The position numbers and the translations under genes were made by a program. From assembly GCA_000934665.2 (NCBI GenBank), contig KZ539218.1:1-45411 (forward strand): a stretch of 45,411 nucleotides of DNA. Reading direction: 5' to 3'. Numbering within the stretch: position 1 is the first letter of the stretch; each line of letters opens with the position of its first letter. Under the pieces are notes generated by a model. That model made no database searches and had not been told where the DNA came from. It saw only the letters and a list, made by a program, of their open reading frames with translations. This DNA comes from Catajapyx aquilonaris (Eukaryota). Positions 1-36,555 of this stretch are shown piece after piece.

Positions 1-280
1 GGGGGGGGGGGTGAACTGTGAATTTTGTTTTGCATTATCTGTCCTATAGAATCGCCGTATAAAAAGTATAACAAACATAGCCTACAATTGTATGAAATAT
101 GAAAAAAAATTAAAACCAAAAATGTACCAAAAAGTGCATAAAAATAAATAAAATGTATCAATACGTAGAAAGTATACATAAAATATACCAAAACAATAAC
201 TACAAAAAATGTATAAGATAAAATATTTCTAATATCAAGAAAGACTCCTTAGGATGAGAATTTGTATCTGATTTCTGGGA

Positions 281-430
281 GACATTTGTCACCTGACCCG
301 TCGGCAATAACAATAAATGCATAAAATAAAATATATTTTCTAATTTCAAGACATATACGATACATGAAAATTTGGATGTAAAAGTTTGTACTTTATTTTT
401 GGGAGAAATATTTGTCACCTGACCCGTCGG
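281..430. repeat. Short direct repeat (two copies)
   Basis: ATTTGTCACCTGACCCGTCGG at 284-304 and 410-430, with similar upstream sequence. Confidence 0.7.
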
Positions 431-1404
431 ACCTGAACGTGGTTTGCCACCAACGTCGAGCTTTCTCAATTTTTTTCTAACTACTTTTAACTGACATTTA
501 TGGCATTGAATGAGAGTGTAGGCGCCTTCAAAGAACTGACATGGTTCGAGTAATAAAATTATTAACCGCACTTTTTTTTTGTACCTTTCCTGAACGCGTC
601 ACTAAACTTTGAAGAAGAAGAAGAGAGAGAAAAAAAAACCACCGACTTGTGTAATTTGGATGTCAGCACCTGCGTGATGCCATCAAATCTTATATCAGGT
701 GGGATGCTCCAACCCACGATCACCACCTCGAATTGTTGTTGTTTTTTCGGGAAAAGCGTTGGTTCACCCAGTGGGTCTTTTTCCAAAAAATTGATAAGGA
801 GAAAGAGAAAAAAAATAAGAAGGTTTTGACCCGCCTTTCGAAAGCGGTTCCCTGTCATTAGCGGCTACCTTGTAGAGGATGATTTAGGAAACACAGGATA
901 CGGCAAAATGAGGCTATAAAACACGTCATAAATATATTCAAGCATTACATTACAATGGCTGTGCACCCCCTCCTGAGGGGGCACCTGTGCGGGTCAAGTG
1001 TAATTATCGTACCAACCGCATCGACTTTTTGACGGGTGAGAGATCGGGACAACAATAAAAAAAAGAAGCTTGAGATGAGGATAAAAAGAACCAAGTGTGT
1101 GTGTGCACAGTGGCTTAACGAGAAACTGCCTCCAAGCCTCATGTAGCCGACTCTTGCACGTACCCGCCCACTTAGACCTGATATGAATTAATGATGTGGA
1201 GTTGAAATTCTGTTTTTTTTCTACGAAAGGGACCCCGGCAATCCGACACAAATGGATGATGATTGCATTTGCACGTACGCCATGTTGCAATCTGAATTAT
1301 TAAAAATTACTGTACGCAATATTTTTGAAAGTGTCATTGCATCCAGGAGATTTGAGGGTGTGGTGATAGAGAAAAAAACATGATAACCCTCATTTTTGTC
1401 ACTT

Positions 1405-1580
1405 ACCATGAATTCCGTCCTACAGAAAATTCTATTGCAATAATTTCGAAATTTTGACAAAAAAAATCGCAATCGAATTTTCTGTATAGGACGGAATTCA
1501 TGGTGTTTTCGATTGCAAATATTTTTCGTCCAAATTTGAACAAATTGCAATCGAATTTTCTGTAGGACGAAATTAATGGT
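1405..1580. mobile_element. Small fold-back MITE-like element with a duplicated right arm
   Basis: ACCATGAATTCCGTCCTACAGAAAATTCTATTGC (1405-1438) is inverted at 1469-1504. A second copy of the right arm is at 1545-1580. Confidence 0.7.
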
Positions 1581-3659
1581 TTTAAATCAGGTGAGGTCAT
1601 ATTTTAAGAAAATGTTTTGACTTCTTGTATCCAACAGACTTTTTGACGTCGTGTGCGGTACGGACCACCAACACACTGCTACCAATTTCGTTCTATCGGT
1701 ATACAGGGCCCATTACCTTCCAGAAACACTGCCCTCTACTTATGTCAAGCAAACGTCCAACCGAAATTGCACCCCCCAAAAAATTGGAAAAACCACCACA
1801 ATATCTGCCCTCCGGTCCTCTCAAAATGAATAACTAAATTAAGGACTAAAAAGGTGCTTCGAAATGTATGAATCCTTTACATGGTGATCAATAAGGCATG
1901 ACCAAATGATGGGGGTGGAAAAGGACGGTGTGGAAAAAAGCACACCGACAAAACACCGGCCTGTCTCCACCTGTTAAAAAGGGCCGGCACATGAATCAAA
2001 AAAGAGACCACCGGTACATTTGAGAATCAGAAAATTTCTTTGGAAAAACTGACATAATTAAAAGGCAAGCACCGCCCTTTAATCCCGAGGCATATTTTTG
2101 GAGAGCAAGAAAACTAAAGTTCCCTAGATACGATGTTGTGGTATTGTTTCTAGGTAGTTTAACTTACGCATAGTCTCGGTCGAGTAGTTCGGGGACGGAA
2201 GTTTTCTTGCCCTCCCATCGGCCTATTATCCCCCCCTCCTAGTAAACGGGTGTAATTTTGTTTATACTTGGCTTTTCACCTGGTTAAAGGCCACTTGTTA
2301 GCGCTGTCAGCGTACAAAGGCCGATTGGCGAGCGGCGCGGCCTCTCAAAAGTAGCGGCCGTGCAAGCCGCAGCGCCACGCGAGCGGAGGCCCTGCAATCA
2401 AAGCACCCCCACCTCCTAGGAAAAACCCCACCCAACCCACCACACAACACTCTTTTTGCCCCTTGTCTCTACTAACCCCTCGTATAGTAACAAAAAAAAA
2501 AACAACACACACACCTCTCCCTGAAGGGTAATCTAAAAAAAGAATGGAAATTTTTTGGGGAAAAACTGGACCGTTGTTTTCTGGAGGGTAGGGTGTTGTT
2601 CCGGATTAGTTTAATTCCGGTTATGGAAGGATGTACCGGACAGTAGACGGGTGTACGATAGTCCTTCAGCTGTACTTACAGATGATGGAGTCAATTGTAT
2701 CATACAGCAATTACAGTGCACTAAGGAGGAGTTCAAATTTGACCGCATGATGTCACGTTCAATATTCCTGTAAGTAACTAGGGAATATCTGCACACCGCA
2801 ATAATCGACAGCTGGGACGACCCATCTATAAGCAATAAATGACATTGTCGTGGCAAATGCAGACGTGGGATTGTGATATCCACATTTCGTAACAATGGGT
2901 GTGGCACAATCGCGATTTATTTATTTATGTTTTTTTTTTGTTTTGCATTTTTATTTTTCGGTGATTCAGTCGGTGGGAGGCAAATCGCCGTTGTTTTCTA
3001 AAATATGGTTGGGTTTTAATTCCGTTTCAGGCCGACATGGCGCTTTTACCGGGCAGAACTGGCCCGTACCTACATGGCACAGAAATGACAACCTTCCGTG
3101 TGAGTATAAACGAAAACAAGATGATGTTGTGATGAGCAAGAAGAAGTTTGTTGGGTATCAGGGGGCACGAGACCTGCGAGTATAAACAACCCGGGCTAGA
3201 TGTATCTTTATATATGGTAGAGGGGGAGGGGGGACTGGCCAAAGGGTAGTTTGTTGGTTGAGTGTTGGTTGAGTGGGGGTTTCGCTCAGTGACGAAGGAT
3301 GTAGGAATGCGCAGTTACGGCCTTGGAGCAGGAAGTGCGGTGTCGGCTCATCCATCCCATGGGCCAAGCCCGCCCGACCTGCCCTCCTCGCCTGCTCAAC
3401 CCACTCCATCATTTAACCATCAAGCGCCCCATGCATTCATGCCCAAACCACCCTCCATTTTTGTTGCGTTCCCGCCTCGGCACGTGTGGGACGCGCCATC
3501 TTGATATAACTCGCCGGTAGTTGGCGCGCAGGCAGCGGGGGTGAGACCACTACGCCACCTACCAGACATTTTCGCAAAGAATATTACACGAGACCACCCT
3601 ATAGAAATTCATTATTCAATTATTTCACGAGTGAACCCGTTGCCATAACTTGGTAACAC

Positions 3660-3760
3660 TGCCCACTTTGACTTAGTACGATATGCCCCTCACAGATGGC
3701 GAGCCGCCCTCTCCGTACACTACTGCCACTAATGGGGAAATTACTCAAATTAGTACTTAG
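3660..3760 (+). repeat. Dispersed repeat family E, copy 1
   Basis: Shares TAGTACGATATGCC with 27009-27022. Shares ACAGATGGCG..CCCTC..ACACT.CTGCCAC..ATGGG..AGTA.TTA with 41145-41220. Confidence 0.6.
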
Positions 3761-5470
3761 TGTAGGTACACCTACGTACACGAGTACGTACATCTATAAT
3801 ATAGCCTCGCCTAGCCAATTCTATATGAGACACCCTTTATTGCTTTTTCATTAGGAATTAATTGATTTGGTTACATTATTAAAATTAAGCAACCGTCGCA
3901 ACCCGTCACGTAATAATAAAGCTTATCTTTATAGAAGTAACAGAAATGCGCAGTTTGTCCCACTCGTGTAGGCTTTGCAATTATTGCGTGTGCTCCAGTG
4001 GAGGCCACGTGGGGACTGAAAAGCCTACTGGAAGACTTTGTGCTCGTGCTCATTGGTTGTAATTAGGCTCATTTAGTCATTGAGACAAAATTAAAGCTAC
4101 GCATTATTTTCATGAGCCGACAAGTGAACTTCTCGACTACACTGCCAGAAAAGCTTGACATTTTTTCTCGTAATTATCCCAAGTGCGTGTGGAGAGCAAT
4201 ACAGCTCCAGTTTAAGCTTTTAAAAAATTATCCTAGGCTGCATTTTCAAATAGGTAATTAAGCAGCCACCTCCTGGGATTACTGCTAATTAATTATAGCA
4301 TTGCCGATTGACCAGTTTTAGGAGCTATCCGAATATTGACTACTGATATTACATTGAAAATCATATCTGCGGTTAACTGTATTTTAAGACGAATAAATTT
4401 ATTAGAAATGAAAGTAACCATAATAAGCAGGAATGGCCTGTTGTGTGAACGCAGATTAAGGAGCTAAACTCAGATTATGCATTTCCCCCATTGTATACAA
4501 CCGACTTTATATTCAGAAATATTTCATCTAATTTGTGTTGATGCAACCGGTCCTAAGTGTCAACTAGTTGGCACCACTGCCAGAATTATTATGATATACA
4601 AGCGCCGTTATATTTTTTTCCCCCCTCCCAAAAATTTCGGCTCATATTTGAACCCATGCCAGTCCACGTGCGCCTGATCTTCACAAACAACAACAACAAC
4701 AACAGGTTGATTACACATTATTTGACACCGATTTAAAAACCAGTTGTGACAAGGTACTTCCAAAACATGAAGCTCAACCTTTTCCCACCTGTTGGAAAAA
4801 GAGCGAGCCTAAAAACGGGTCTTACTTGGGGGCCTTTCCCTTCTACCTTTATTTTTATTTTTATTTTTATTTTTATTTTAAAGAAGATGGTGGTGGTATA
4901 GGGGTGGAGAGGACGAAGAAGAAATATTGGCCCTTTGTTTTCTCCTGGCCATCTTCCCCCTCCCTCCACACTGAACCTCATTATAGCCTCATAGGGTGGC
5001 TCATAACCTTGGGGCTGTTGGGTACACTGCTTCTTCTTCTTCTTCTTCTTCTTCACCTGGATGCTGTGCCTTCTTCTTCTTCTTTCTTCTCCATCCCCTC
5101 CTGTTTGCTTGCTTGCTTCCCAACCCCGCCGCCACTCAGACGGGACAATGGAGCTCGGCCTTGAAGGTTCTTCCACTCCCCCACCTCATTCTAACCCCCC
5201 CTCTACACACACACACACACACACTCATTCTGGCTCTTCGGGACTTTTGGAGCTGGCCCTCCTGGCTTGCCAACTGTGCCGAACTTGCACACATTCCTGG
5301 CTTGGGCATGGACTCGCCGATTGGATAAATAAACATGGTATTTTGGTAGGGGCTTTATCTGGTAAACCCTGGTTTTGTATTTTAGGACTGGACTAGAATT
5401 ATGTGGACTTTTTTTTTGCGTAAATTAACGGATAACTCCTAGTTATCAATGTACAGTACAATGCTGAACA

Positions 5471-5591
5471 TTAATGGTGTCGTACTGGTGGCGCCATGAG
5501 TCGTTGATGGCGAAAGAGCGAACAGAAGTGATGAAACTACATCCCCTCGATTCGCTCTTTCACCGTCGTCAGGTAGTGGCGCCACCATTAA
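5471..5591. mobile_element. MITE family A, internally deleted copy
   Basis: TTAATGGTGTCGTACTGGTGGCGCCA...AAAGAGCGAA / TTCGCTCTTT...CACCATTAA; homologous to 18138-18542. Confidence 0.8.
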
Positions 5592-5599
5592 TGCCCAGC

Positions 5600-5780
5600 A
5601 TAATTTACAAGTACGAGATTCGCCAAAGATTTCTTGTGATCTACATGAAGATTTCCATTAATGTCAACCAGCACTGTAGGAAATTTCCAAAATGATTTGT
5701 ACGAGATTCGCACAAATTATCGTGATTTACATGAAGATTGACATACCAAGAGGCTCGAGATTTCTGATGATTTACATGGG
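5600..5780. repeat. Degenerate tandem duplication (~88-bp period)
   Basis: GTACGAGATTCGC at 5611 and 5699; GTGATYTACATGAAGATT at 5636 and 5722; partial third copy at 5768. Confidence 0.6.
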
Positions 5781-5961
5781 GGGATTCAACCTCCGAGCCA
5801 TGATTGTTGCTGGGGTCAACAACCCAAGTCCACGGCGCAGGAGGATATACAGGAGGGGAAAAGTTACGAATTTCTTAACTTCAGAAACCTGAATGAACGA
5901 TAAGTGACAAGTGAATCATTGCTGTAGCGAACAATCCATTCTTCACCTTACCAATGTGACA

Positions 5962-6090
5962 TTTGACGTCACATCCGGTTGCCATGTATGTTTGACGTCA
6001 CTCGGTCGCCATATTGAAATATGGTTGACGTCACATCCGACCGCCATGTTGAAACGGGATTGACGTCACTTGTTGGCGCCATATTTGAAA
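5962..6090. promoter_or_regulatory. Four-unit tandem array, each unit a CRE palindrome plus a YY1-like GCCAT motif
   Basis: TGACGTCA at 5964, 5993, 6026 and 6061, each followed within ~10 bp by GCCAT. Further TGACGTCA at 6388 and 6958. Regulatory function is inferred. Confidence 0.5.
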
Positions 6091-6696
6091 AGATGGTTTC
6101 CGTCGCGTGCTGCCAGCATTGTCAGTGTGTTACGGTTGGGTGTCGCGTTTCATTCAATGTCCAGTGGCACCCGCATCAATAAAACGGGCGTCAATGGGAG
6201 GGCCTTGTTTACTCGACGGGGTGAGAGGATAGGTGGGTGGGGGTGGGGGGGTTTGTTTGTGTGCCTTGCCGTTTTTATGTAATGGATACACAGGACTTTT
6301 CGGGGGTGGGTGTGTATGTGTGTGGGGGGTTGCTCTTCAGGCTGGATGAACAAAAGCGGAGGACCTCATGTACCATGCGGTTCTGTGTGACGTCACTAGT
6401 GACACTGTCGGGGAGGGCCCAACAAAAATCCTTGGCCTTGGACTTACTTTTTCGAAATAAGGGGGAGGGGGAACCCTAATTGCTTTGAAGTCCCCCCCTT
6501 TTTTTATTTTTATTGCGAGTGTTACAGGGTGGTCAATTGCCCTTGAAGTGGTGGAAGCTATTCAAGAAGACGGAATTGGCAACGACGGGGAAAGGGAAAA
6601 AGTGGGACCAACGACCGCCCTTGATCGTCCTAGGGTTGAATATTACGAACAGACCTGTACTGTCGTCAGCCTATAATATTATGTTGGATTGTACAC

Positions 6697-6762
6697 GTAC
6701 TGTGCTGGTGGTGCCAAATTGAATTGCCTCCGTTCAATTCGCTCTTTTGCCGCTACTATTAA
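6697..6762. mobile_element. MITE family A remnant
   Basis: GTACTGTGCTGGTGGTGCCA...TTGCCTCCG...AATTCGCTCTTTTGCCGC...ATTAA pieces match family A arms. Confidence 0.55.
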
Positions 6763-7888
6763 TGACCGAAATTTCAATCAGTGTGTACAATTTTTCAACT
6801 TTTTTTAAAAAAATGTATATGATGCAATGTGGGCCTCTAATTAACGACCAGGGTGTGCACGCCGGCGGAATCCGAAATTGGGCCTGTAAACTCGACGGAT
6901 AAGCATGGCGCAATAATTAGTGTCCATCTTGGAAACCAGGGTGTAATGAGCGGGGTGTGACGTCACATCCGAAAATCCTGCCTCGGTTTTCCAAGTCTTG
7001 AGGAGGCGTTGAGCATGTGATGAAGCCTTGTCTGGACCAAACCGCCCTTAGGATGCTGCTCGTTAGCTTACGACTCATCATCATCATCATAAGCGCCATC
7101 AGAAGGTCCGGACTGAAACTAGCGGAAAATTGAAGCCAGTTTATATTATGGTGAAGGAGGCGTGGCAGGCGGTTTGTAGCCCGTCCGGAATTTATAACAA
7201 ATGTCACGAGCCAGGCTGTTGTTGCTTAGTGTTACGTGAGATGTGGTGTACACATACGGGGGGTGTAGGAATGTCAAACATAAGGTTGGGTTCAAAGTGC
7301 AAGGGTTCACATTGGTCTTTGGTCATTGCATTTTGTAACCGACTGTATGTCCCCCGAGAAGAAAAAAAAATGCGCGTCTTGAACATGGGTCCCCGCCTTG
7401 TTGGGTTGTCTCGTAACCGGAGATTTGTGGTCGCAGGGTCACCGGTGCTCTTTCTATCATGGCGGCCACCTTTTTTTTCTTCTTCTCCTTATCCACCCCC
7501 GAAAATACACCCCAGGGCCCTTCCACGCCCTTTTGTTTACTCGCACCCCCTCTTTTTTTTTCTGTGTGTGGTCAGGTAGTTACTTCTCTGCCAACCCTGA
7601 AAATTGAGGTTCTTTCGACACGATATTTTTTGGGGGGAAACGTTGGTGGGGTGCGATTAATTGGTCATGTTGGCACTACTGGTCCGGGTACACACACACA
7701 AAAAAAAAACTGGGGAGAGAGAACACCCGACCGTTGAAGGACAAGCGTATTGAACCTGAAGGTCAGGGAAGGGCTTGTTTTTGTGTCCTCACCGCCCTGA
7801 ATGGGGAGCGATCGGTTTGGCGCACCTGAAATATTTGGGGAGTCATACTATGCCCAGGTAAATGTACAGTACACGGTCTTACAATATA

Positions 7889-8363
7889 CAGTTGAATCAG
7901 GATATAACAGACTACAAGGGTGCCTGGGAGCGCTGAAAAATAGCCAAATCGCCACTTTTGCAACGAATACGCAAAGTTTTCTGCTTTCCATTGGCATATA
8001 ATGCACGGATTAATGAAACTGATCACAAAATTGCAAAAAAAACGTAATTTTCTTCTGCCGTCTATTTCTTGCCAAATATAGGCCTACCAGAAAAAGAATG
8101 ATTTTTACCTTGTCGGCAAGTAGATCATTGACAGATGGGAAAACCATCCTCGAGCTCCAGTGATTGCCTCGCATGGAAAATGATGCTGAGTAATTAAAAG
8201 CAGCACTGTGGGGCCTAGAAATGGTATGTGGTACCAGAGATGAGGTGAAGATGAGTCTGTTATATCAGGAGTGAAAATTATACAGGGCGAGGGCCTTATG
8301 GAACATTTCCGCGGCGTTTCGAGTCTTTATAACCGAAAGATTTGTTATATCCAGAGTCAACTG
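7889..8363. mobile_element. Tigger/pogo-like MITE family D, copy with ~280 bp of extra internal sequence
   Basis: TA|CAGTTGAATCAGGATATAAC ... GTTATATCCAGAGTCAACTG. 8241-8363 aligns with 14338-14466. Confidence 0.65.
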
Positions 8364-8421
8364 TGTACATCTTATCGCTTATCAGTTCTCACTCGTAGGG
8401 AGTGGCGTTTCCGCTTCGGCG

Positions 8422-8601
8422 CTGGTGTACATGTTGGACATTAATCGAGGCATATTAAGTACTAGCGACATTTTCCGAAGTGGCAGAAAAAGGAATCGAA
8501 GATAAGGATATTGCAAGCCGGGCGAGCAAGATTCCTTCTTCTGCCGCTTCGGAAAAATGTCGCTGGCAGTATGCCTCGATTTATGTTCAACACTGCACCA
8601 G
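8422..8601. mobile_element. Fold-back element (~75-bp imperfect arms)
   Basis: CTGGTGTACATGTTGGACATTAATCGAGGCATA...GCGACATTTTCCGAAGTGGCAGAA..AGGAATC pairs with GATTCCTTCTTCTGCCGCTTCGGAAAAATGTCGC...TATGCCTCGATTTATGTTCAACACTGCACCAG. Confidence 0.75.
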
Positions 8602-9872
8602 TGTGGCGACCCTGGATTCGGATGAAGCCGACAATTCAAATTGAGTCCGTTGCATATGCAGTCGAGGTTTGGATTTAATTTCTAGTTGAATTGAAGAAGG
8701 GGGCCCCGGATTTTCAACCCCACGTCTCTCTTATTCCACCTGGCAAATTCCGGGCATTTTCAGGCAGACCCCATGTTGTGACATCATGAAAAGAGAGGGG
8801 GGTCCGGATTCGGCCCCCCTTCACTCCAGCCCCCCCCCCCTCTTTTGTGCGGTGCGGAAAAGGATTTTGGCAGAACTTTAGCGACAAAGACATGAGGAAG
8901 TGCTTTCATGTGGCTGCAGTGTGGGGTTTTTAAGTGCAAGTAGGGAATGCTCCAGGGGTTTTGTTGGCCCGCGCGTGTGTGTGTGTTCGCCCCCCCCCCC
9001 CTCTCTTTCAACACTGACAATTGAAATATGTAGCTCAAGTGCCCCCCTTTGAATTGAACCTCGGCTAGAAAATGGCGATCCGGTCATATCTGACAAACCA
9101 TTTGATGTAGCTGGTTATGTGTGACTCAGCATGATTACCATGGATTCAAAATGGCCACAATTCAATATGGATGCGAATCAACATGGCGGTCGAATGTGCC
9201 ACGTGGCTTGAATTTATCACGTGTTTTTCTGGCAAACCTCATCATCCTGCCTGCCTGTCTGCTTGTCGACCAAAAAATGTGGGCAAACTTCAAGATGGCG
9301 AATCCAGTTGGCCTCCAAGGATGCTTGGCAGGCAGGGTGATGGACAGAGGGGAAAGTAAACGCCCTTTGGCTTGAGGTTGAGGAGGACACTTTATTGCCC
9401 CCTTGGAACGCCAGAAAAGCAAACCGGTCCCAAGCCCCTTTGCATCAAGGGAAAAAGTAAGGGAGGGTGATTGGCTATAATGCGGGATGACTGGTACAGT
9501 TAAGAAGAGAACCAAGGTGGTAATATCTGCGAGTGCGAAACGAAAGGATAGGAGGATTAAGAGAGAGTGACGTTAGACGAAAAAGGCCGCTTGACAGCTG
9601 CCGTTTAGCAACGGAAAAAAAAAACCCACGAGGGGGGGTGGGTAGGGTGTGGATTATTTTGGCAGGCATATTTACGTTAGAGGGAAGCAGTGTCAACAAA
9701 TAGTGGCGGGGAAGAGTGGCAGACTTTGAGATTTCAGGACCGGAGGATGCTTTGCCATCTAGAAATCAAACGCCCCCTTTGTTGGCTGTCAGAAAATTTT
9801 CGCTTGTTACAAAATAGGGGCTGCTCGTGTCCATACCTTGACAATAATTGCTTGTTTAAAAATGCAGGGTTG

Positions 9873-9964
9873 TGACTAACCTTTTTGTCCCCCTTTTTTT
9901 CCAGGTATGTAGTGATTTTGTGCCCGAAACCAACTCCATGGGACAACGCGCCGTTATTGTAAGT
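9873..9964 (+). other. Candidate recursive splice site (ratchet point) with 54-nt RS/cassette exon 9905-9958
   Basis: TGACTAAC branch point (9873-80), pyrimidine tract CTTTTTGTCCCCCTTTTTTTC, CAG|GTATGT (AG 9903-04), and a second donor GTAAGT at 9959-64. The exon reads open in phase 0: VCSDFVPETNSMGQRAVI. Confidence 0.6.
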
Positions 9965-12900
9965 ACAGACATTACAACCCAGATAGAAAATGGCCGGCAC
10001 GCGTTGCCAGCAATATTATCCTAAAAAACTGATTTCTATCACTGTTCCCAATTCTTTCAAAAAAAAATATATGGGGGGCTCAAACAAGAAGCTCACAAAG
10101 GAGCTAGAAAAATTGTATAATCAGTCTGATGGACAGTGAAAAGAGGCGCGGGCGATGAATGGCTCCTGAGGAAAATTATATATAAAGAGGAAAGGCGGGC
10201 CATTGGGGGGGTTCCTGTATGCAAACAAGCGAGTCTGGCTGAACAATAGAGGGACACACGGTATGTGAGTGTGTGTGTTGTCTAAAAGGAAATGGGTTAT
10301 GGGTGGGTTTGCATTGTAAGAAAAAGTGAAGAGTGGGGGGGAGCTCCCAAACGGAAGCGGAAGGTAGCCCCCCAGCACGGGAGTTGTTATCGCGATTTAT
10401 ATTTCGCGAGATGACCGATATGTTGTAGCAGATGTGAATCGAAAATATTGGCCGTTTGGTGATTTATTGTGGGGGGCATTATTGGGGGGCGGGGATTATT
10501 AATGTGCATAGCACTTAAGATTATATTGTTTATGGTGGGTTACCGCACCTGTGGAGGTCATATATCTGCATAATATAAAGCAGAAAGTTTGTACATATGG
10601 ATATCACTGCTACCTTACCCACTTTCAGACTACTGAGAGTGCTGTAACTTTCCACACCTTCCGCTGACTCAGGGAAAAGTTCGAAAACTGCACTTTTTGA
10701 GTGTAAATACCCAAAATTTAGGTTTTTTGGGGGTTTTAAAAACCATGTTTGTTCTCTGCGGCACATTATAATCAGTTGCCCAACTTGGCAACACTGCCCG
10801 GCTCGTCCTGCACTGCCACTCTCAGGAGAAAGTAGTACATCATGCACGTTGGTGATGAACCAATTCTACGTATGATATAAAATTCATACCGTACGTACGT
10901 AAATATTTCTTTTTTGCTAAATGATGGTTTGAGAATGGGTTGTAGGTAGGGTGTTTAAAAAAAATGGCGATAAAGAGCACGAAGATTTCGTGTGTGAGTG
11001 TTGGGTTAGGGCCAAATATGCGCGGCACCTAACGTGGGGTCACGGGTTCTGCCAACACTTTTGGCCTACCCCCCCTTCCATAGCTACTTTTTTCCCCCCC
11101 AAAATTTTTTTGTGCGTGTCCCATCCCTTGTACCTCCACCCATTTCTTGGTGATGAATGAAGGGTAGCAGAAGTTTTTCTCTGTTTCTCAAGACGGTTAT
11201 TTCCAGACCACCCCAATGATCACGTCCGTCCTAACACATACGGGTGTTTGGTCAGAACTCGTGAGTGCATCTCGCCGTGGCAAAGCCACAATAACGTTCG
11301 TTCGTCGCGTATATATATAGGAAAGATCAAATGTATTTTATGACGCGTTTCAATTGGGTTAGATTGGAAAGGGCGGCCGCTTATTTGGTCGCCGCCAATA
11401 TTTTTCTCCTTTGGTCCTCCCACCCCGATTTCGATTGAAATTTTAGGAATTGATGAGAAGCGCTTAGGCACTCAAAACAAAGCGGCGCGTCGGCTTTTCT
11501 CTCTGAAGGGATTGGGTGAAGGAAGAGAGGGATAAAGACGTGAGGGGGGATACACCAGCTTTTGTCAAAGGCAACGAATAAATACGGCTCGGATAAGTCT
11601 TGGGTTCTTGATCCCACGGCTTATCTACCGGGTGTGCCAAAAAAGTGTCCCAATTTTTTTTGGAGGGGGGCGATAATAAGTCTTGTGATTTGTCCTCTCT
11701 TGTGTGCTGTTTCCCTGCTGCATCGTTGGAGCTGACCCTCTCTCTGCTACTATAGGGGGGGTGATATTGGCTCCCTGGCAAATACCAGGCATTCCGTTGC
11801 CCGAAACAAGAGCTTGCAGTTGGGTGTGCACGGCATGGTAGAGGGGGATGGGGGTGGCAAGGGGGGAGAGAGACCCACCCCGATTTTCATTTCATTTGAA
11901 TTGGACCGGAGTTTCCAGGAGAGAGGATAGTATATGGTTGCACTACGCCCATTTCGTCCAAATCGAATTCAGGAGAGGAAGTTTTTTTTTCATTCCTTTT
12001 TTTTTTCATGTTGCCAAGCCTAGAGCATGAAAGAGGCGATGACCACAGGGATTTTCAAAAGAGTTGCGTGGGATTGTAATTCGTTTTCTTCAGTTATAGG
12101 TGGACTGTGGAGGATTTTTTGGGGGGAGGCCCTCGTTAAAAGGATACCATTCGAGAGAGGGGGATGTTATACACGTCTTTATTGAATTCTGTGAGTGGCT
12201 CCCGGTTTTTATTGGTGGACAGGAGGAATGTAACTCTCTGAAAGGGGGGGCAGGGGGCAGGATGAAACTATTGGCTACCAGGCTCGAGCGCAATGTAGTG
12301 CAGAAAATCATGTGTTTTTGGGCATTCCGAACATTTTAACAAAATGGGGCTAAGGCCGGTCTGGAATTCGCAAAGTGGAAGTCACGCCACATTTTGTAAA
12401 ACACGCCTCATTGATTTTTGCGATATGGCGTTTAAATTTATTTTTAAAACTATACGAACGCACACACACTCGCGCAAATCCATTGTTTCGACAACAACAG
12501 CCTCTAAGGTTCCTTCCAGAGCCACGGTAACGTCGCAAAAGTCGGCCATATTGTTACCCCCCTAAAGGGTAGTGTTGGAAACAGCTCGGCTGTGCTCATT
12601 TAAAAAAATGCATCTATACTAGGAAAACGCTCGCTCTTTTCTAGGCCGTGGGGTACCTATTCGGCGCACCATATCGCCGGGGAATGGACAGTTTCCCCGG
12701 CAACCCAACAGGAGTTGTTTACACCCCATTGCCCATGAGTAGAACGCGGGCCAATGGGGAGGTGGCGGTAACAATATGCGGCGGACCAATCAGAGGGCTC
12801 GGCTAACTCCCGCAATGATTTTAATATTATAGATAGAGCACTTAAGGTGCTTTTTTTGTGTGTAAATATTATGCTTCCGTTCCTTCCTGGACGTGCATTG

Positions 12901-14275
12901 TTGCTCGTGGCGATATAAAAAAAATGGGTTAGAAACCTGGAAGAATGAGTCACAAAACTTTCCTGGCAAATACGATGGGATATTGCCAAGGGAAAAAGAG
13001 TAAGTTGAATGGTGGAGTCAGGAAGCGCTGACCTCCGCTCTAATATTAAACTCCGAGGACGATGGAAATAGGCCTGGATGTGCATCTAAAGGAGTTGCAT
13101 ACAATATGTAACCCATTGCCTGTATCAAACATGGCAAACATGTCTAGTCCAACTGTTTTTTTTTTTTAAACCCTGCCATGCCTTTTGTAGATTTTACGCA
13201 ACTGTTGGAGGGCAGTTATTAAATATAATAAAAGTGGAATGTCGCCTCGGGTGGTGTCAGAAAACTAGATTGACACCGTGACACATTATGCCAAAAATTG
13301 GGAGGGGGTGATCTATTCCCCCCCCCCCAAAAAAAACAGCAAATTGTTGACATGCAGGTATGTGGTCACTTTGTTTTTGACCTCCTAGAAAATCCGTGAC
13401 TGAGACTGGAAAATGAAGCATAATAATCCAGGGTCAGGTGATAATTCGAGTAGGTTCGAGTGTACGTGTGGAAAAAACATGGCGCCGTAATTTGCGGGGG
13501 TAAAATGGTAGGATTTTTTTTTTATAAAGGTGGTAAAGGGGGGGTTGAAAAATAAGGAGGAGTGGCCCCTTAGGGGGGGGGGTGCGCCTTCTAGAGAGTT
13601 TTTGGCCCCCCTCAAAACACCTCTTTTTCCCTTTCTTCACCCCTCATTCCCTGGGCCAGGCCTTATCACGCCGGTTGATGCATGGCGTGTAAATAACAGG
13701 TTAGGCCAAACATGGTTGCCGGATTTTGGGATGGGTTGCCAGGTGAGACACCCGCCGGATTTTTACACCATTTTTTTTTGAAAAAAAAAAAAATTGTGGG
13801 CATATCCGGAAAAAAATTTGCATCCGATTGCCATAAGGTTGGTTTTGGGGGGAAAATTGCTTGATTTTTTGGCTCATAATCGCTCATAACTGTCCGAAAT
13901 AAGTATGGAAATTAGTGTGTGGGGGTGGGCCAGCTGGTGCGCCGCTGACCGTATGCTCCGGAAAATATTTTTGGGTGGTGTGTAATTAAAATAGGCGTGA
14001 TGTAAATCATGCTGAGTTATGCTTCGCACCGTCAGACTATTAATGGCGTGTTGTTGCCCCTGGAGGGACTAACGAGCTGAATTAAATATGGCTGTCGTCT
14101 ATATATAAAAAAAAGACATCACGTCACGCTTTAACTATTATTAGTATTATGCACGGCCGTGTTGGTGGAATATTTTAATAAAATTTGTGACAAAGCAATT
14201 ATTCTAGAAGCGGTTATCACACTGTCGTTTTTACCCCCAACATGTCAGATTCTTGAAGAAAAAAAATAACAAATA

Positions 14276-14466
14276 CAGTTGACTTCGGATATAACATACT
14301 TCATGGGACCGCGGAAAAAGTCTGTTACAGCCTATTGGTGAGGTGAAAATGAATATGTTATATCAGGAGTAAAAATACACAGGGCTTTATGGACGTATGG
14401 CAGGACCGGCCCTTCAGAGTTTGTTATAACCGAATAATCGGAGGCTGTTATATCCGGAGCCAACTG
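14276..14466. mobile_element. Tigger/pogo-like (Tc1/mariner superfamily) MITE family D, complete copy
   Basis: TA target duplication (14274-75, 14467-68). TIRs are CAGTTGACTTCGGATATAAC and GTTATATCCGGAGCCAACTG. Confidence 0.8.
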
Positions 14467-14745
14467 TACATTATTATGAAAGGAAAATGTTTGTTTGTTT
14501 GTCCAGGTGGCAACGTAATCAAAGTGTCTTGTAGTTGTAATGCGTACAATAATATGTGAAATAGCAGTGTGACATAACCCGTTTTCCGATTCCATGGTGT
14601 AATTGACCAGCATTGTGTATAATATAATACATTATTATAAAAGGCAAAGGTTGTTCGTTTGTCCAGATGGCAATCTAAGCAAGTGTTGCATAAAATAATA
14701 TGAAATAGATGTGTGACATAACCAGTTTTCCGATTCGGATTGTGT
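14467..14745 (+). mobile_element. Two tandem copies (~161-bp period) of a Helitron-like 5' segment
   Basis: TACATTATTATRAAAGG.AAA.GTT.GTT.GTTTGTCCAG.TGGCAA at 14467 and 14628; both share GTGTGACATAACC.GTTTTCCGATTC. Resembles insect Helitron 5' ends with (GTTT)n. Confidence 0.5.
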
Positions 14746-16232
14746 ACCCGAAAAAATCATGCCTAATTAAATAGACTGTTAATAAATCATGCTTATTCGG
14801 TGTACCGTGAACACCTTTAGGATATATATGTAAAAAAAAGAGAGTCTGCCGCCTCCACCTTGTTTGTCCAAGTATTGTAAAACAAGGGCGAGTCATTAAA
14901 TCAAAATGGCGTCCACCAGAAGTTGGGGCTTCAACTTTACGACGCCCTGGAGGCGCTCCCTTGGCCGCAATTGTCATCCACCCGTCCAATTTGACTGTGA
15001 GAAACGCAGCAGGGAGTTTTTTGATACAAGTTTACTACTACAGAAGAAGAAGAAGAAGAAGGGGGGAGAGCTTACCATTTACCATCAGACCTGCCAAGTA
15101 TTGAGTTGCACCAACTGGAGAGAGAAAAAAAAGGGGTGCACCGGTTGGGTGGATGCAATGGGGCTTTAATGGTCCATCACATTTTATTATGCGGGTGCTG
15201 GCGATGATAATTCAAAATGGAACTGGTCGACTATGAATTATTTATTATTTTGAGCCAACCATATCGACGCCATTGTAGGCTACGGTTGAAATACAGGCGT
15301 TGGCAGCCATATACATGCGCCATATATGCGAGGAGTATGGTACTAGTTTTCCAGGCTAATTTGACACGTGTTTAGCCATGCACACACACAAAAAAAAGAA
15401 GTCTTAACTTGACATTATTGGACATTAAGCGGATAATGAGTCCACAAAAGAAATTTGGGCCTCTTATAAACCCATCCGGGGCATTCTTTAGCGGTGTAAA
15501 CCTCCCTTGGATTTATAGGCCTAGTGTAATAATTTTCTTGAGCCAGGACTTGATCGCTCTGGAATTTTCCAACGGTGGCAAAACCCTTAAGTTATGACAT
15601 GTTAACGGGCAAGTGAGCACCTACAAGACGCCCCAATGAATGGGCGGATGGAATTTTCTGGGCGGGAAAATTTGTACGTGTCGTGTTACCCACTTTTTTT
15701 ATCCACTTTTTTTTACTGTGAACTCGACTGGACTAAGACAAGTAACTGGCTGCATCGATCTAAAACCCCCAAGGATCGTAAACAAGCAGCTGCTTAAACC
15801 TTACCTTACACTAATTACCATGGAGCTTGTCTTGTTACCTTTTCCTTGGTTGCACAGGCGACAGTTTACTTTACGTCCAATTTCAAAGAGGGGTGTGTGT
15901 GTTTGTGTTTACGATGCTGGTCACTGGCTTCTAATTGCGTCATTTTTTTGTGTGCACTGTTTGGCACCCTTTCCTTTCGGTGTCCTGCAGGTGACGTTTG
16001 CCAGGTGACATTTTGATCAGCGAGGCGACACGTGCCGTCCATCTTGTCCGGATCACGTGTGGCCTCCTTTTTTTTTTGTAGGAGGAAACTCCTTGAACAC
16101 ATTACCATGGTCTAGTAGCCCTAGTTAATTTTAGCAGCTAAATCCGCGAGCCTGACTTATCATCAGTGAAGATTAGCAGTACCGTAGTCATTTGCAATTT
16201 TTTGTGCGTCCATATCGAAGGGCTTTTAGCCA

Positions 16233-16770
16233 TTTTCCTGCCGGAAAACATTTTTCGGTTGGAATTGCGCCGGAATAGTTATTCGTTTTTTCTTTTTAAA
16301 AAATAATGTTTTCCAGCTCCTTACCTGCCGGAAAACAATCTTTCGACTGGAAATGAACCAGTGATAGTTATTCAACATGTTTTCTACCGGTTTTCCTACC
16401 GGAAGACATTTTTCGGCCGAAAATGAGCGGGAAAAGTTTTCGATATGTTTTCTTTATCCATCCTAAAGCATTTTATTTCTGCTGGAAATTAACTAGAATA
16501 GCTTTTTCATGTTTCCCCGAATTTTCTCACCATAAAACATTTTTTTGGCTGGTAAAGAACCAGAAAAATTTGTTATTCACTGTTCTAAACAAGTTGTTTT
16601 TTTTTACCCAGTTTTCGGCTGGAAATTAAGCAGAAAATCGATTCATTGTTTTCATGTTTTATACCACTTTTCTGCACCAGAAAATATTTTTTTGGGGGCT
16701 GGAAATGAACGAGAAAAATGTTATTCGCAATGTTTTTTTTTTGTTTTTTTTTCCAACCGGAAAATGTTTC
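16233..16770. repeat. Degenerate ~70-85-bp tandem repeat, about 8 units
   Basis: Recurrent TTTTCCT.CCGGAAAACATTTTTCGGCTGGAAATGA.C.G.AA..GTTATTC. Confidence 0.65.
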
Positions 16771-17834
16771 TTGTAGATTTTTCGTTCCGTTAGTTTCCGA
16801 GCCCCGCCATCCCACCTGCAGATTTCAACACCTATACATGCACATTACCATAACTCCATCGTGTCCCCCCCTCCAACTCGAATGGGTCCTGACATTTTAG
16901 TCTAACTAAGCGTCGTGGGTCAGGCCCGCTTGGTGACGAAATGAAGCTGGAAAAGCTGGCTTTTCGGTGTCACTTTACCTCTTCCCCCCGCCTATTTGAT
17001 GACGGCCGACCGTCCACCTAATAAATTATGGACGTCCCCCCTGCACATAAAACTTGTTCGCACCTGCACGCTCAGGGCTCTCCAAAAAAAAAAAGCCAAG
17101 CATGGTTAAATACGATTACTTTCGGGATTAATATTTTCGAAAAATTATTTTTCCCCCCTCCAAAAAAGGGGGATGGGTTTGCAGGCATGTAAAGTGGCGG
17201 AACCGATCGGTGTGTTGGCTGCCTCGTTAACCTCTCCCCCTGCAGGCGTTAGTCTCGCCTTGTTAGTCCGGCTAGATCAAGGATGTTCCTCCACCTTTTT
17301 TTTATGTGTATATTCACAGGTTTGTAGGGTGGAAAAAGGGGTGGAGCTCGCACAATAACAGCAAACTATTTTTGCAGTGTCCACATAACATAGGTGCGTG
17401 CCTTTTTACTCGGCCCCCGAACCGCCATAAAACCGTATAATTTCCAGAGCTGTGCTGCCAGGCATAAACAAACCCTGACCGTCACGCATGGCGATGTAAC
17501 ACTCCCCCGTTGTAGACGTAAGGACCCCCCGATTCCATTCAAAATGTTTGAGTCGAAATCCCCCCGACCATTTATCAGTTGCCGAATATATATGAATATG
17601 TGGTTAGTAACATGCAAGGGAATTACAACCAGGTGTGTAATTAACGTGGCGTTTAGTCCGACAGTTTTCAATATATACGCCGGGTTGCCTAATAGAACTA
17701 TTGCGTGGAGTTGTCGGCACGATAGGCGTGGCCTGGGGAATCAGTCAGTATCGCAATTAGCCCACCGTGGGGGGAGGAACGACAGAGGCGGGTATAGGTG
17801 TCTGAAAAAGTGAAGCCGACAAGTACATGGTGCA

Positions 17835-17880
17835 TTTGTGGCGCCAGGAGTTGCTGTCGGCAAAAAGCGCGAATTTGAAA
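17835..17880. mobile_element. MITE family A, left-arm fragment
   Basis: GTGGCGCCAGGAG...GTCGGCAAAAAGCGCGAATTTGAAA resembles the family A left arm. Confidence 0.5.
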
Positions 17881-17899
17881 TATTTTCTTCCGTACAGTT

Positions 17900-18125
17900 C
17901 TGCCGTCAGATATGAGAATACCGTAACTCAATGTCCACTTCCCCTTGCGGCGAGAAAAAAAAGCAGTGGTACCAAAAGCACCCAACAGGTGGAGTTGGGG
18001 TGCCGTTCCTTTTTCCCCCCCTTCCTCCAACGCCACCTCTTGGATGCTTTCGGTAGCACTTGCTTTCTTTTCTCGCCGCAAGGGAAGTGGACATTGAGTT
18101 ACGGTCCTCTCACATCTGACGGCAG
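17900..18125. mobile_element. MITE family B copy 1 (226 bp, ~100-bp imperfect TIRs, 4-bp TSD AGTT)
   Basis: AGTT|CTGCCGTCAGATATGAGAATACCGTAACTCAATGTCCACTTCCCCTTGCGGCGAGAAAA ... TTTTCTCGCCGCAAGGGAAGTGGACATTGAGTTACGGTCCTCTCACATCTGACGGCAG|AGTT. Confidence 0.9.
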
Positions 18126-18137
18126 AGTTCGGGGTCA

Positions 18138-18542
18138 TTAATGGTGTCGTACAGGTGGCGCCACGAGACGATGGCGGCACAAGACTGCCGTCAGATATGA
18201 GAAGACCGTAACTTAATGTCCACTTCCCCTTGCGGCGAGAAAAAAAGCAGTGGTACCAAAAGCACCCAACAGGTGGAGTTGGGGTGCCGTTCCTTTCCCC
18301 CCCTTCCTCCAACGCCACCTCTTGGATGCTTTCGGTAACACTTGCTTTCTTTTCTCGCCGCAAGGGAAGTGGACATTGAGTTACGGTCCTCTTACATCTG
18401 ACGGCAGAAGAGCGAATTGCAAGTTGCCTCCGGATGACCACCTTCACTTGCGATAAAGTGAAGGTGGTCATCCGGAGGCATAACTTGCAATTCGCTCTTT
18501 TTCCGCCATTGTCTCGTGGCGACACCTGTGCGACACCATTAA
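18138..18542. mobile_element. MITE family A, near-perfect palindromic copy bounded by TTAA and interrupted by family B copy 2
   Basis: TTAATGGTGTCGTACAGGTGGCGCCACGAGAC ... GTCTCGTGGCGACACCTGTGCGACACCATTAA. Central hairpin TGCCTCCGGATGACCACCTTCACTT / AAGTGAAGGTGGTCATCCGGAGGCA. Confidence 0.9.
18185..18407. mobile_element. MITE family B copy 2 (223 bp, 4-bp TSD AAGA), nested in family A
   Basis: AAGA|CTGCCGTCAGA...TCTGACGGCAG|AAGA. Removing it restores the family A arm sequence AAGAGCGAATT. Confidence 0.9.
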
Positions 18543-21500
18543 CTGTACGGAAAAATCCTGGAAACTACTGCATAAAACAAAGGCTCAGCCAGAGAGAGGC
18601 CCAGGGTCCTCTTCATTAGCGGACTCTGTCGTCTAATATGGTATAGGCCTAGCCTCTCCCGTGGAAACAGGCGGGCTAAACAGGGTTGCCATGCGACGCT
18701 GGGGAAAGGGAGAGAACCGACCTCAACTCTTCCAATACCTGAGAGAGGAGGGATTGTTACCATGGCGATTCTGAAGTGGAGGTGGGGGGGTGTTGAGAGA
18801 GAGAAACTCGGTGTGAATAATACCCCCATACTCTCTTGTCCGCTTCTGGAGCAGCCATGCTGGGAAATGGCACATAGTCACGCGTTAGAAGGGAAGTAAA
18901 ACCTGCACCCCCAGGCCGAATTTTTATAGCCGACGGAGTTAAATTGTTGCCTCATTAAACCCGAGCCCCCAATTTTTTTTTCGAGAAGAGGGGGCTAAAA
19001 ATCGCGGATTCACAAAGAGCTGTTTAACAATTCCTTTTGTGTGTCACTGGCTCTTTTTCAGTTCAAAAATTGGGCGTCCTTTAACTTTTTTTGCCCAGAC
19101 CCATTTCATATATAAACAGTACAAGTCAACTTGTTGGATAGGAAATGAATCGCGTGGTGCATTGAACCCTGTCGATTATTTGGCTCGACATGGCCCGTCC
19201 TCCCACGTGATCCATTATTTTAGAAACTTCTGTGCGGATCACGCAAAGGTTTTTACTCCCCCACCACCAATGGAGGAGTCATGCAAACTGTATGTCTGTG
19301 TGTGTGTGTTAGGTGCAAGTAGGAGGTGCCCTGTGCGTGTGAAGTAATTTAACGCCCCACGTGTATTGGCCAGGGGTTGAGTTTTCTTTTTCTTTTTTTT
19401 CAAAATGAGGAAATGCAAGGGGATAATCTGGCTACTGTGTTTCAGTTGCGCAGACCACCCGCGCATGCAATTTCGCGTAAAGAGCCGGTGTTTACATGCT
19501 CGCGTGCTGAGCCGATGAATTGACAAGCGTGTGAGAAAAGGATAGCTTACTGGGCGGAATCACTCAGCTTAGGGCATTGTACTGACAGTAATTGTTTGCC
19601 CGGGCTTTTTCTGCGCATTGTTCTGCGCATGTCAGTGCCGTTCTGCGCATGGCTTTGCGCATTTCATTGGCCGTGACCTGATTCAGGTGTATATCACAAA
19701 AGAAGCTCTGTAATTAGTGCATATGAACAAATGGGAGTTCTAGACGACTCATTTCGATGAGAAACATGCAGGGTGTTTCAAATACTGGGGGAGGGTTTTA
19801 CAAAAAAAAAAAGAGAGCTGGGGAAGGCTGGGAGTGTGCTCCACCCCCACTTTGCAGCAAACATTGGGCCGATTCTAATGGGACCCACAATGGTAATGTC
19901 ATTTTAGGGTCGGCGGGGCGCAAAATCCCGCATTGGGACCCGGGCAAGGGTGAAAACAAGAGGGGGGTGATTATCCCAGTAGTTGTATAGGCTGTCAATG
20001 TGGAAATAGGACCCTCTGATAAAAGAAATTATATTCTTTAAAAAAAAAAAGTTTCTTAACTAGGTAAAGGGGACATGAACGCATATGGTTGGCAGGACGA
20101 TTGTTGTCAGAGTGATGCTTCATTAGGGCAGATGTATGGAGAGGGAGGGTCGCATGACCTGGGTGACAGTGTCTCTTGGCCAGATTACAGGGTGACCCTT
20201 TCCACTCGTATAATCCCCCCCTTCCAAGCCCTCCTAGGGTGTCTCATTGTTCGTCAGGCATGCGAATATTTCGCACACTCATTTTACAGGAATTCACATT
20301 GCGTGGAGGGTGCTTCCAATTGTTGTAAGCTATTCGGAAAAAAAAGTTACTAACCATATTTTTTTTTGGCTGCCTGTAAAACACTTTGGGATCCCCATTA
20401 CGTCCGCTTATTATCCGCATAACGGGGCCCCCTGATTAGGCTCATTTTTAGCTCATTTTACGGCCAAGATGATATCTGATGCCACAAAAATTGGCCCGGG
20501 GTTTTTTTTCACTTAGCTCCCAAAATAGCACAATTTGATTCACTATGATCACTTTCTGATAATTTCGTGAGCATAATTTTTATCTGGATGGTGTTGTATG
20601 CTGTCCTGAAAAACATGTGGGAAAAAATCTGGCCGTGCTATCATTTACAGCGATTAACACATGTCCGGTCCTTAAGCAGGTGACCCCTAAGGGCAAAAAG
20701 CCTGGCCCTTGCTGGAATGCGGGGCATCTCCATGCCCGGTTATCTACTCCTTCTCTCGAGGATGATTTAAGATGGTGGTGGGGGCGTGCTAAGACTCGCG
20801 GCATAAATTAATGGCGCTGCAAGCCCTTTTTCTTTTTGGGGAGACCCTCGAGGCCGAAGAAGAAAAAAAATGAATCTTGATTTTCACCTTGGTTTCGCTA
20901 CTGGGTGTTTCGGAAAATCGTGACTTCCATACTGTAGAGACGCCGTCGATAGATGTCGCCATAATACTGACGAAATTGTCTAGTTAGATTTTTAAAAGAA
21001 GATATTTCCAGAAAATATGGTAAAATTGTCTCTTAGGACATACTGTGCATTTTACATTTAGGTTTGGTCCACGATTGTGCATGATATTGGTGGGTATTAG
21101 CCCATAATATCATGCTATGGGCCAGTTTGTTCACAACCCTTAACCAAAGTTATACCGACAAACTTGTGCACTGTAACAACCTCCACCTCAAACTTGGTAA
21201 CTAGTTGGCCCCCACAAAGTTTGGACCCCCACCAAACGTAACTAGTTACATGCCTGGAGCTCCCCCCCCCCCCCTTAAAAAAAATGTCATCCAGAAGTGT
21301 TAATTACACCTTCAGCTTCCAGCACAAAAGGTTTGACTTGTTGCAAGTCATTCAAAACCCTCCGGATACTTACTGTGCAATGACTCTACACATCTCAGGA
21401 TCGATACTTAAGCATGGTTTTCGAACTTTTTATGTGAGGTCCCCAATTTTTTGGTGCAGCCTGGGTTGAATTGAAGAGGGAGAAGGGGGGGTAGCTTTTT

Positions 21501-23956
21501 GCTTCATTTGAGGAGAATCGAAGGGGCGCATTGAGGCTCATGGGCCCTTGTCAATTGGCACAATGCACAGCTCCCAATATCCGGCCCTGGGGAGGAGCAA
21601 CTAGAAGGTAGGGGTCCGGAGAGAGAGAGAGGTTTTTACCCCCATCCAGACCAATAGTTCTGCATTGATTAGGTCGAAAAAGAGGGGAAGGTAGTTCTCG
21701 ATCAACGTGGTCCTTTTTCTGCCTTTTCGTTTCAAATCATTAGAATTTTTTTTTTTTCCCTTCCTGGAGCTGGAGACGAGGGGGTTGGAATGGGATTGAT
21801 CCTAGGGGACGGAGTTCTCCCCATTGAAAGGTGAGGTCTTTTGTTAAGCAGGTCAAATTAGGGGAGCGAATGGGCGGGGATGATTTTCCGTTCCTTGCTT
21901 CCAAGCGCATTTTCTCCATTCTTTGCGAATTTCTTTTTTTTATATATATATGTTGAAGTTTCGCGACCTGGACTTTTGGCAATTCGGCGAATGTGAGGTC
22001 CAAAATTGGCCCTGTTTCGAATTTTCATCCCACTGCTAGATTTGGCGCAATGGGGATGGAGACAGCTCCTCTGGTGGGTGGGAGGAAGAACTATTTGTTC
22101 GCTGTCAGCCGGAGGGTCTACATCGCTCCATTCCCACCCCTCAGCGAATGAGCAAAGCGAGGTTTAAAAAAAAGTAATTATGTAACCAGCCAATGATATG
22201 CTAGGAGATGCACCAGGATTGGACAATGTTGTCATATTCCCCAATCTGAACCCAAAATCACTTCCTCGTTGCGGTCACCGTAAGGTCGGCTCGACTGTGT
22301 CAAACCAAGGTCCCCCGCTTCCCAAATCAATGCAGCGTACACCAAGTGAGCTTTCCTGTTTGCTTATTCATGCACTTGTCATCCTCCCATTAAGCCTCCC
22401 ACCTACTCGGCTGGGGTCATATAAAAAAATATAAATAATAAAGGGCGTAACTCAACCCCCCCTCTATACTAATCACCATATCTCGTCGGCTCATTTTCGC
22501 CTGTCCCCCTACCACATTGTCCACATCTAATTGAGAGACCCAGAGGGATATCCCCCTCCTAGGTTCTAGCATCAAACCAGCTGGACATGATAGGCGTCGG
22601 AAGACGGCTTTTGTCCGCCCTCCCCCTGCCACGCCTGTGCTACTCCAAAAACTGTAGAGATACTCCAGACTAGTGTCCCCGTATTACATAACCAGCTAGA
22701 GGGGGTTGGTTTGTAATAAGGACAATGGTTTGTCTGGGGATGACGGGTTTTGCGAAGACTTATCACTTGCTAATCCCTAAGGGGGTGGAGGGGTGCACCA
22801 ATATTGTTGTTCTAGGGGGGTATTATTGGTGAGGCAGAAGAGCTCATTTCCTGTCTTGTGTTTTGCGGGTTGGTTGTCGCTGCCAATTAGAAAGCCTGGA
22901 GCCTCGAAGTTTGCTAACTGTGGCAGCATTGCGGCCGCCATGACACTTAGGGGCATGTTGCCAGAGAAATGTCGGCGGACTTTTTTTTCTCTCTCTCCAA
23001 TAATTTAACCGGGTTGTGTCACGTATCCTATTAAATATCCGGAGCTCTTTGACATCGCCGTATTATAATATCGCTGGCACACGTAGTTGAATTTTGTGCC
23101 GCCATGACACACGCACACAAAAAAAGTACACCAAAGTGCATTAATACTAGGGAAGGACACCGAGCCGTGGCTGCCTTTGATCAGACTCTGCGACTAAGTG
23201 GGGTAGAGCATGTATGTGAAAACACACACACACACGTACACATACACTGAACACACACACCCTCTGCTGACATGCATGCCCCGCACGCGTTGGGAAGCCG
23301 CATCTCTTGGCCAGTGTCCGGCCATTAATTCCGGGCCAGGGCCTAGCTCATTAAGCCCCTGCGGTTCTTCGTTATCTGCCTTCATAATGATCGTCATTGG
23401 CTCCCCTCCCTCCGGCGCAAAAAATTGCCTCCATTGTTGCTGAGGTGACAATGGGAACGCCTTTTTTTCTGAGGTTTATAACAAAATCCGGTTGGCTGGC
23501 TGGGCTGGGCTGTGCCTCAGGGCTGCCACCACTTCATATTCATATCAATATAAGGGATGGATGGATGGATGGGCAACAAAGGGGTCCGTGGCCTTTTTCC
23601 CTCAGAACTGCCCCCTGGCCCCCCCCCCCCTCCTATCCCCACCAACCGCACGCCACAAATCAACGGCACCCTGTATATACACCACCCCACGGTTTTGACA
23701 CCCTCCAGCTGGCCCATCACCTTATTATTCTAAACGCCTTCAAATAGGGAGCGCACTGCTGCCAACACCCCCCTAGTCGGATATATTTTTTTTTTCTTCC
23801 CACGGACTAATAGGGACAAGTCCCAATTTGGCCGAGAGGGACCAGGATTAGGGTGTCAAGAGGTCAGCAAATTATTAGTCAGCACGTAGTACACGTCTGG
23901 ACACATAGGAAATTTTCTGGCTTGAGCGGCGCATAATATTTTTTGTCCAGTCGTCG

Positions 23957-36492: not shown

Positions 36493-36554
<62 letters not shown>
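36493..36554. repeat. (AG)n microsatellite, at least 31 units
   Basis: Direct reading; probably extends into the gap. Confidence 0.98.

Positions 36555-36555
<1 letters not shown>

Follow-up and report, generated by a model that had tools for sequence, protein, structure and literature searches.

A pangolin/TCF exon and the apparent intron upstream of it

The window, as the whole 45,411 nt stretch of DNA analysed here is termed, carries a coding exon of pangolin/TCF towards its 3' end, preceded on the same strand by a long region with the appearance of a single intron.

1..42466, + strand: apparent pangolin/TCF intron, with its 5' end beyond the window and no other exon found
42467..42608, + strand: pangolin/TCF coding exon of 142 nt, starting in phase 0 and followed by the donor GTAAGT

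The reading frame of this exon matched 133 proteins, mostly insect pangolin/dTCF sequences, at 67-83% identity; the nearest matches, at around 80% identity, come from hemimetabolous insects. The first-pass annotation of this DNA was right in naming TCF/pangolin as the host gene. As the best match reaches 83% identity and none is near-identical, the source species is absent from the protein collection. The first codon of the exon, GCT, encodes the alanine of AGKMGL, which fits the A[GS]KMGL start of this exon in insect pangolins, and the exon boundary at which the match begins in homologues separates ...PIPVSM from A[GS]KMGL. The boundary falls at residue 111/112 in P0034, the pangolin of Schistocerca gregaria, between a CTNNB1-binding match (residues 6-68) and the HMG box (residues 307-375), such that residues inserted at the junction would lie between the beta-catenin-binding domain and the HMG box, as had been stated in the annotation.

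Two isoforms of Neocloeon triangulifer, P0033 and P0031, differ by the residues FQ directly before AGKMGL, a difference that fits the use of an alternative acceptor 6 nt upstream; the bases before 42467 in the window are ...TATTTGCAG. Beyond the other end of the exon, an EYWRGLGLG... extension is present in some isoforms of many insects (P0001, P0016, P0023), whereas other insect isoforms continue directly to LTRPPMYPF, which points to an alternative donor or a cassette just downstream. Reading through past 42608 in the window (KYNCLVN...; 42609-42660) yields no EYWRGLGLG-type sequence.

A long alternative N-terminus is joined to the same A[GS]KMGL exon in many insect pangolin forms, including P0006, P0010, P0012, P0018-P0020, P0022, P0026, P0035 and P0076. 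The presence of a DDE_1 transposase-like domain was confirmed for P0022, at residues 251-431; in the remaining long forms its assignment comes from precomputed Pfam lists only. That so many homologues show alternative N-termini suggests that alternative upstream exons are common in pangolin.

Eighteen insect pangolins, comprising nine canonical forms and nine long forms picked for their listed DDE_1 domain, were used as tblastn queries, and 42467-42608, with E-values between 3e-13 and 5e-21, was the only pangolin exon found in the window: all other matches to the canonical forms had E-values of at least 0.8, and the nine long forms revealed no DDE_1-type exon. Similarly, a motif search of the window recovered neither beta-catenin-binding nor HMG-box signatures, and no Pfam match above threshold was obtained from the 151 window frames of at least 78 aa, the sole listing being a sub-threshold DUF6007 match of 16.7 bits against a cut-off of 26.7. 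Neither an Rfam family nor a tRNA was found in the window. With no other exon, gene, Rfam family or tRNA detected, the 42.4 kb upstream of the exon look like intron; the upstream exon would then lie beyond the window, and we infer that the DNA around 9.9 kb is transcribed as part of the pangolin gene.

The intron itself contains a 227 nt direct repeat (17900-18126 and 18185-18408, 97% identity) and a related inverted copy approximately 5.5 kb away (18398-18529 against 23966-24092), as well as two short-period arrays at 25060-25372 and 39055-39448. A 288-aa frame on the - strand (17698-18564) is without a Pfam match. An assembly gap of 263 N occupies 36230-36492, with (GA)n simple repeat on its flanks, and single N are found at 24850, 32487, 32771 and 37244.

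Anatomy and rarity of the candidate junction

The candidate recursive splice site is on the strand of the pangolin exon, at least 32.5 kb upstream of it, within a region (9600-10300) that has no second copy in the window and contains no tandem repeat. All of the elements that the first-pass annotation had described here were found base for base on the + strand, across 9873-9964.

9873..9880, + strand: putative branch-point motif TGACTAAC, read directly from the sequence, with 9879 as the putative branch A
9881..9902, + strand: polypyrimidine tract, 21 of 22 bases C or T and the remaining base G
9902..9910, + strand: candidate ratchet point, the acceptor CAG fused to the donor GTATGT, with the junction at 9904/9905
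9905..9958, + strand: candidate RS-exon of 54 nt, open in phase 0 (translation VCSDFVPETNSMGQRAVI)
9959..9966, + strand: second donor GTAAGTAC, which would define the RS-exon, its GTAAGT 54 nt past the junction

The putative branch A is 25 nt upstream of the AG ending at 9904, the spacing that had been claimed, and motifs of this CTRAY class occur in the window at a frequency of 0.0027 per position. No AG was found between 9880 and 9902. The intervening tract, with its 21 pyrimidines in 22 nt, deserves its description as near-pure, and pyrimidines occupy 19 of the 20 positions from -23 to -4. Positions -6 and -5 relative to the candidate junction are both T, a feature shared by just 6 of the 142 AGGT sites on the + strand and 9 of the 158 on the - strand. 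At the junction, CAG/GTATGT is present as reported, the sequence running on from 9905 being GTATGTAGTG, and the GTAAGT starting at 9959 is placed exactly as annotated and is the sole GTRAGT 20-120 nt downstream of the junction.

Translation bore out the claim that 9905-9958 is free of stops in phase 0, matching the phase of the 42467 exon. Frame 3 of the same segment contains two stops, and frame 2 is open too; because of this second stop-free frame, openness alone constitutes weak evidence. The surrounding 54-aa stop-to-stop frame (9860-10021) had no Pfam match.

The rarity of this arrangement was gauged by scanning every AGGT on both strands of the window, a total of 300 sites (142 on the + strand, 158 on the - strand). 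The site at 9905 was alone in combining at least 15 pyrimidines in 20 positions with a GTRWGT-type donor, and was also the only one with both an upstream CTRAY motif and a GTRAGT 20-120 nt downstream; the assertion that no other AG/GT site has all of these elements accordingly held, at one site in 300. Strong acceptor-like sites, defined as at least 18 pyrimidines in 20 positions followed by YAG, number three on the + strand and seven on the - strand, and a strong acceptor fused to GTRWGT was seen in none of 300 dinucleotide-preserving shuffles. The expectation per strand is approximately 0.005 for the fusion of acceptor and donor and approximately 1e-5 for the full composite, figures that overstate the significance of the site because the uniqueness criteria were chosen after it had been seen and because it came from a scan of very many windows, across the whole of which a few such composites would arise by chance. 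For its own window, the site is well beyond chance expectation.

Only one other AGGT on the + strand, at 12100, has TT at -6/-5 and at least 13 pyrimidines in 20 positions (14 of 20). It has a poor donor, GTGGAC, with a GTRAG at +91, and is a much weaker candidate.

Candidate recursive splicing and its alternatives

The best explanation of these features, to which we would give about an even chance of being correct, is that 9904/9905 is a recursive splice site with a 54 nt RS-exon in a pangolin/TCF intron of more than 42 kb. The sequence elements, their uniqueness, the TT at -6/-5 and the position in an apparent long intron all back it, and recursion is further favoured by the location on the sense strand and by the absence of any other recognisable gene from the surrounding window. 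The ratchet-site reading of the first-pass annotation is in this respect partly supported: the anatomy, host gene and phase stand, and use of the site is predicted.

If the site were recursive, a strong acceptor and the 9959 donor would first mark out 9905-9958 as an exon, and the upstream exon, which ends in ...PIPVSM in homologues and hence probably in ATG, would be spliced onto 9905. The first part of the intron would thereby be removed and a new donor, ATG/GTATGT, would be formed; splicing to 42467 could then proceed either from this donor or from its competitor at 9959. Choice of the regenerated donor would give an mRNA without any trace of the intermediate step; alternatively, choice of the donor at 9959 would insert 18 residues where the beta-catenin-binding region meets the remainder of TCF.

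The balance between these two donors was estimated from the energy of U1 pairing, a crude measure of donor strength, using an 11 nt motif that we take to be the U1 5' end. The donor of the RS-exon, ATT/GTAAGTAC, formed a duplex of -6.8 kcal/mol with seven contiguous base pairs, and the regenerated donor, ATG/GTATGTAG, one of -6.9 kcal/mol, the ATG being the exon end expected from homologues. Taking each of the 64 conceivable ends of the upstream exon in turn gives energies of -3.2 to -9.9 kcal/mol for the regenerated donor, and only 16 ends, those finishing in G, push it past -6.8 kcal/mol. Near-equal U1 pairing, together with an open and in-frame 54 nt, is consistent with the annotation's suggestion that donor choice could toggle an 18-aa insert. 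By our own estimate, a random unit would have this length and an open host phase with a chance of approximately 0.15, and this frame evidence roughly cancels the prior from flies of approximately 10:1 for cryptic sites. Should the site be used, partial inclusion, as in Ubx mI/mII, is about as likely as full skipping, on account of the in-frame open unit and the apparently balanced donors.

A more specific proposal, in which recursion controls the 54 nt unit as an expressed microexon in the style of Ubx mI/mII and the last three bases of the upstream exon set its inclusion, is rather improbable. Were it true, a TCF of the Wnt pathway would gain 18 residues immediately C-terminal to its beta-catenin-binding region, and inclusion would vary with the upstream exon, since its last three bases set the strength of the regenerated donor. 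Promoter or first-exon choice would in this way be coupled to protein isoform.

Evidence from relatives was sought in 120 homologous proteins, screened for the context upstream of a K[MI]G[LM] motif. The motif was missing from 18 of these, and a further 69 were without the canonical upstream motif, many having an alternative N-terminus on the same exon. The canonical end of the upstream exon is present in the other 33. The junction is insert-free in 31 of these; P0033 of N. triangulifer has two extra residues there, and P0032 of Lycorma delicatula a 16-aa insert, SSVVDQTVKLPVTNDF. The Lycorma insert starts with S, which is not specified by a GTN codon, bears at most a faint resemblance to VCSDFVPETNSMGQRAVI and, when the region was used in a protein database search, matched itself alone among three candidates. 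Both the prevalence of insert-free homologues and the dissimilarity of the P0032 insert argue against the recursive reading, and the homologues give no support to an annotated microexon conserved widely at this junction. A cryptic RS-exon would go unannotated in any case.

Homologous exons were also present in 38 metagenome loci, totalling 212 kb and with upstream flanks of at most approximately 10 kb. These loci contain no blastn or tblastn similarity to 9700-10150 and no strong AG/GT site; two weak sites with 14 pyrimidines in 20 positions were found, one of them downstream of the exon. This blank does not count against the site, because flanks of this length do not extend as far as an equivalent position.

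Three other explanations were weighed against recursive splicing. It is unlikely that the site is a chance pseudo-exon, in which the motifs are present and the spliceosome ignores them. Decoy sites are numerous in long introns, and even a composite expected at approximately 1e-5 per strand would arise a few times over very many windows, yet the fusion was absent from all 300 shuffles and unique among the 300 AGGT sites. A pseudo-exon would also have to combine, by accident, TT at -6/-5, a donor at +54 and a branch point at -25 followed by a stretch without AG. The location of the site, sense-oriented within a long intron of a developmental gene, speaks against one too, being the setting in which fly sites are reported to be common. 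Quite unlikely, too, is an ordinary 54 nt cassette exon, either alternative or constitutive and species-specific, whose GTATGT start would be fortuitous and would involve no recursion. Such an exon would be in keeping with a length divisible by three and an open phase 0, for which the estimated chance is the approximately 0.15 given above, with the strong acceptor and the perfect donor core GTAAGTA, and with the one insect annotation, P0032, that has a 16-aa insert at the same junction; cryptic RS-exons, moreover, are described as generally out of frame (Joseph et al. PMC8605326). By contrast, our own estimate is that a good donor hexamer would be expected right after the AG in well under 1% of exons, and both the insert-free junctions of 31 of the 33 homologues and the lack of a similar peptide in the 38 relative loci, with their flanks of at most approximately 10 kb, speak against a cassette.

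The segment might alternatively be an exon of some other + strand transcript, for example one that is non-coding, or serve as untranslated sequence in a pangolin variant such as the forms with a DDE_1/CENP-B N-terminus known from many insects. The many alternative N-termini found on the same A[GS]KMGL exon among the 120 insect homologues, and the DDE_1 domain of P0022, lend this some substance. We nevertheless regard it as very unlikely, given that the searches of the window revealed neither a DDE_1 exon nor, apart from 42467-42608, any other coding one, that there is no sign of a second gene near 9.9 kb and that an untranslated exon has no need of a reading frame.

If the recursive site is used, pangolin/TCF, the nuclear effector of Wnt signalling, would join the developmental regulators with giant introns that are removed stepwise, recursive splicing would be documented outside flies, and the RS-exon would be the second clear case after Ubx of a frame-preserving unit able to switch isoform through donor competition. 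Loss of the GT at 9905 through a single mutation could also force the 18-residue insert into TCF. An in-frame RS-exon in a Wnt effector would be somewhat more interesting than an ordinary ratchet point, and the site is a well-formed prediction of an already known type of element.

Comparison with known recursive splice sites

Full-text literature searches, their listed matches judged by title and abstract, found no report linking recursive splicing with pangolin or TCF7L2; for TCF7L2 the matches were mentions in passing. The identifier FBgn0085432 is taken here to be that of the fly pan gene. Neither it nor 'pan' appears in the table of 539 sites from S2 cells of Pai et al. (PMC6110457), an absence that speaks against the recursive reading.

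The best characterised sites for comparison are those of Drosophila. The 197 ratchet points that the preprint of Duff et al. (10.1101/006163) describes in flies come from introns that measure 11-133 kb and average 45 kb. In these sites an acceptor with a prominent pyrimidine tract directly adjoins a donor, and TT is found at -6/-5 in 196 of the 197. Pai et al. 2018 (PMC6110457) found recursive sites in the majority of fly introns that exceed 40 kb, and the donor GTATGT is found at 3 of the 47 proven fly sites examined from their table S7. Joseph et al. 2021 (PMC8605326) report that each ratchet point is paired with a cryptic RS-exon of approximately 50 nt ending in its own donor, which the regenerated donor outcompetes, so that the exon is skipped. 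The same source counts fewer than 50 expressed RS-exons, whereas intronic ratchet points exceed 500, and gives the 51 nt Ubx microexons as the proven expressed examples. The candidate in pangolin has the AG/GT, the tract, the TT at -6/-5 and the donor at +54 by which Drosophila ratchet points are recognised and, as would be required of an expressed RS-exon, its 54 nt contain no stop in phase 0 of the 42467 exon.

Beyond flies, a recursive site has been proposed in the 230 kb NPF1 intron of the migratory locust, with support from U2AF65 RNA immunoprecipitation (PMC8892266), so recursive splicing outside flies is not a new idea. Like the pangolin candidate, the locust site was predicted from motifs, has an upstream branch point and belongs to a very long intron from outside the Diptera; it differs in affecting another gene, in having the U2AF65 support and in that the available part of the report describes no RS-exon. 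Vertebrate RS-exons (Blazquez et al. 2018, PMC6224609) resemble the candidate in that their first bases recreate a 5' splice site after joining. Unlike it, they are described as mostly annotated, mainly constitutive and retained through repression of the recursive donor, with the exon junction complex repressing or allowing them (PMC6224609).

With Drosophila ratchet points such as those of kuz, Bx, Ubx-RP and luna, the candidate shares the fusion of acceptor and donor, the strong tract, the TT at -6/-5, an apparent intron of more than 40 kb and a second donor approximately 50 nt further on, although its host is not a fly and it is predicted from sequence. By contrast with the cryptic RS-exons of Drosophila, which are reported to be generally out of frame, the candidate is in frame and open, and its regenerated donor is not clearly stronger than that of the RS-exon. 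In these respects it is closer to Ubx mI/mII. Whereas the latter are reported as proven, present in mRNA isoforms and ultraconserved among drosophilids, and the candidate is known from its sequence alone, both involve a short, frame-preserving exon that starts with a donor and is located in a giant intron of a gene for a developmental transcription factor, and inclusion of the candidate, like that of the Ubx microexons, would hinge on the contest between a regenerated donor and the exon's own.
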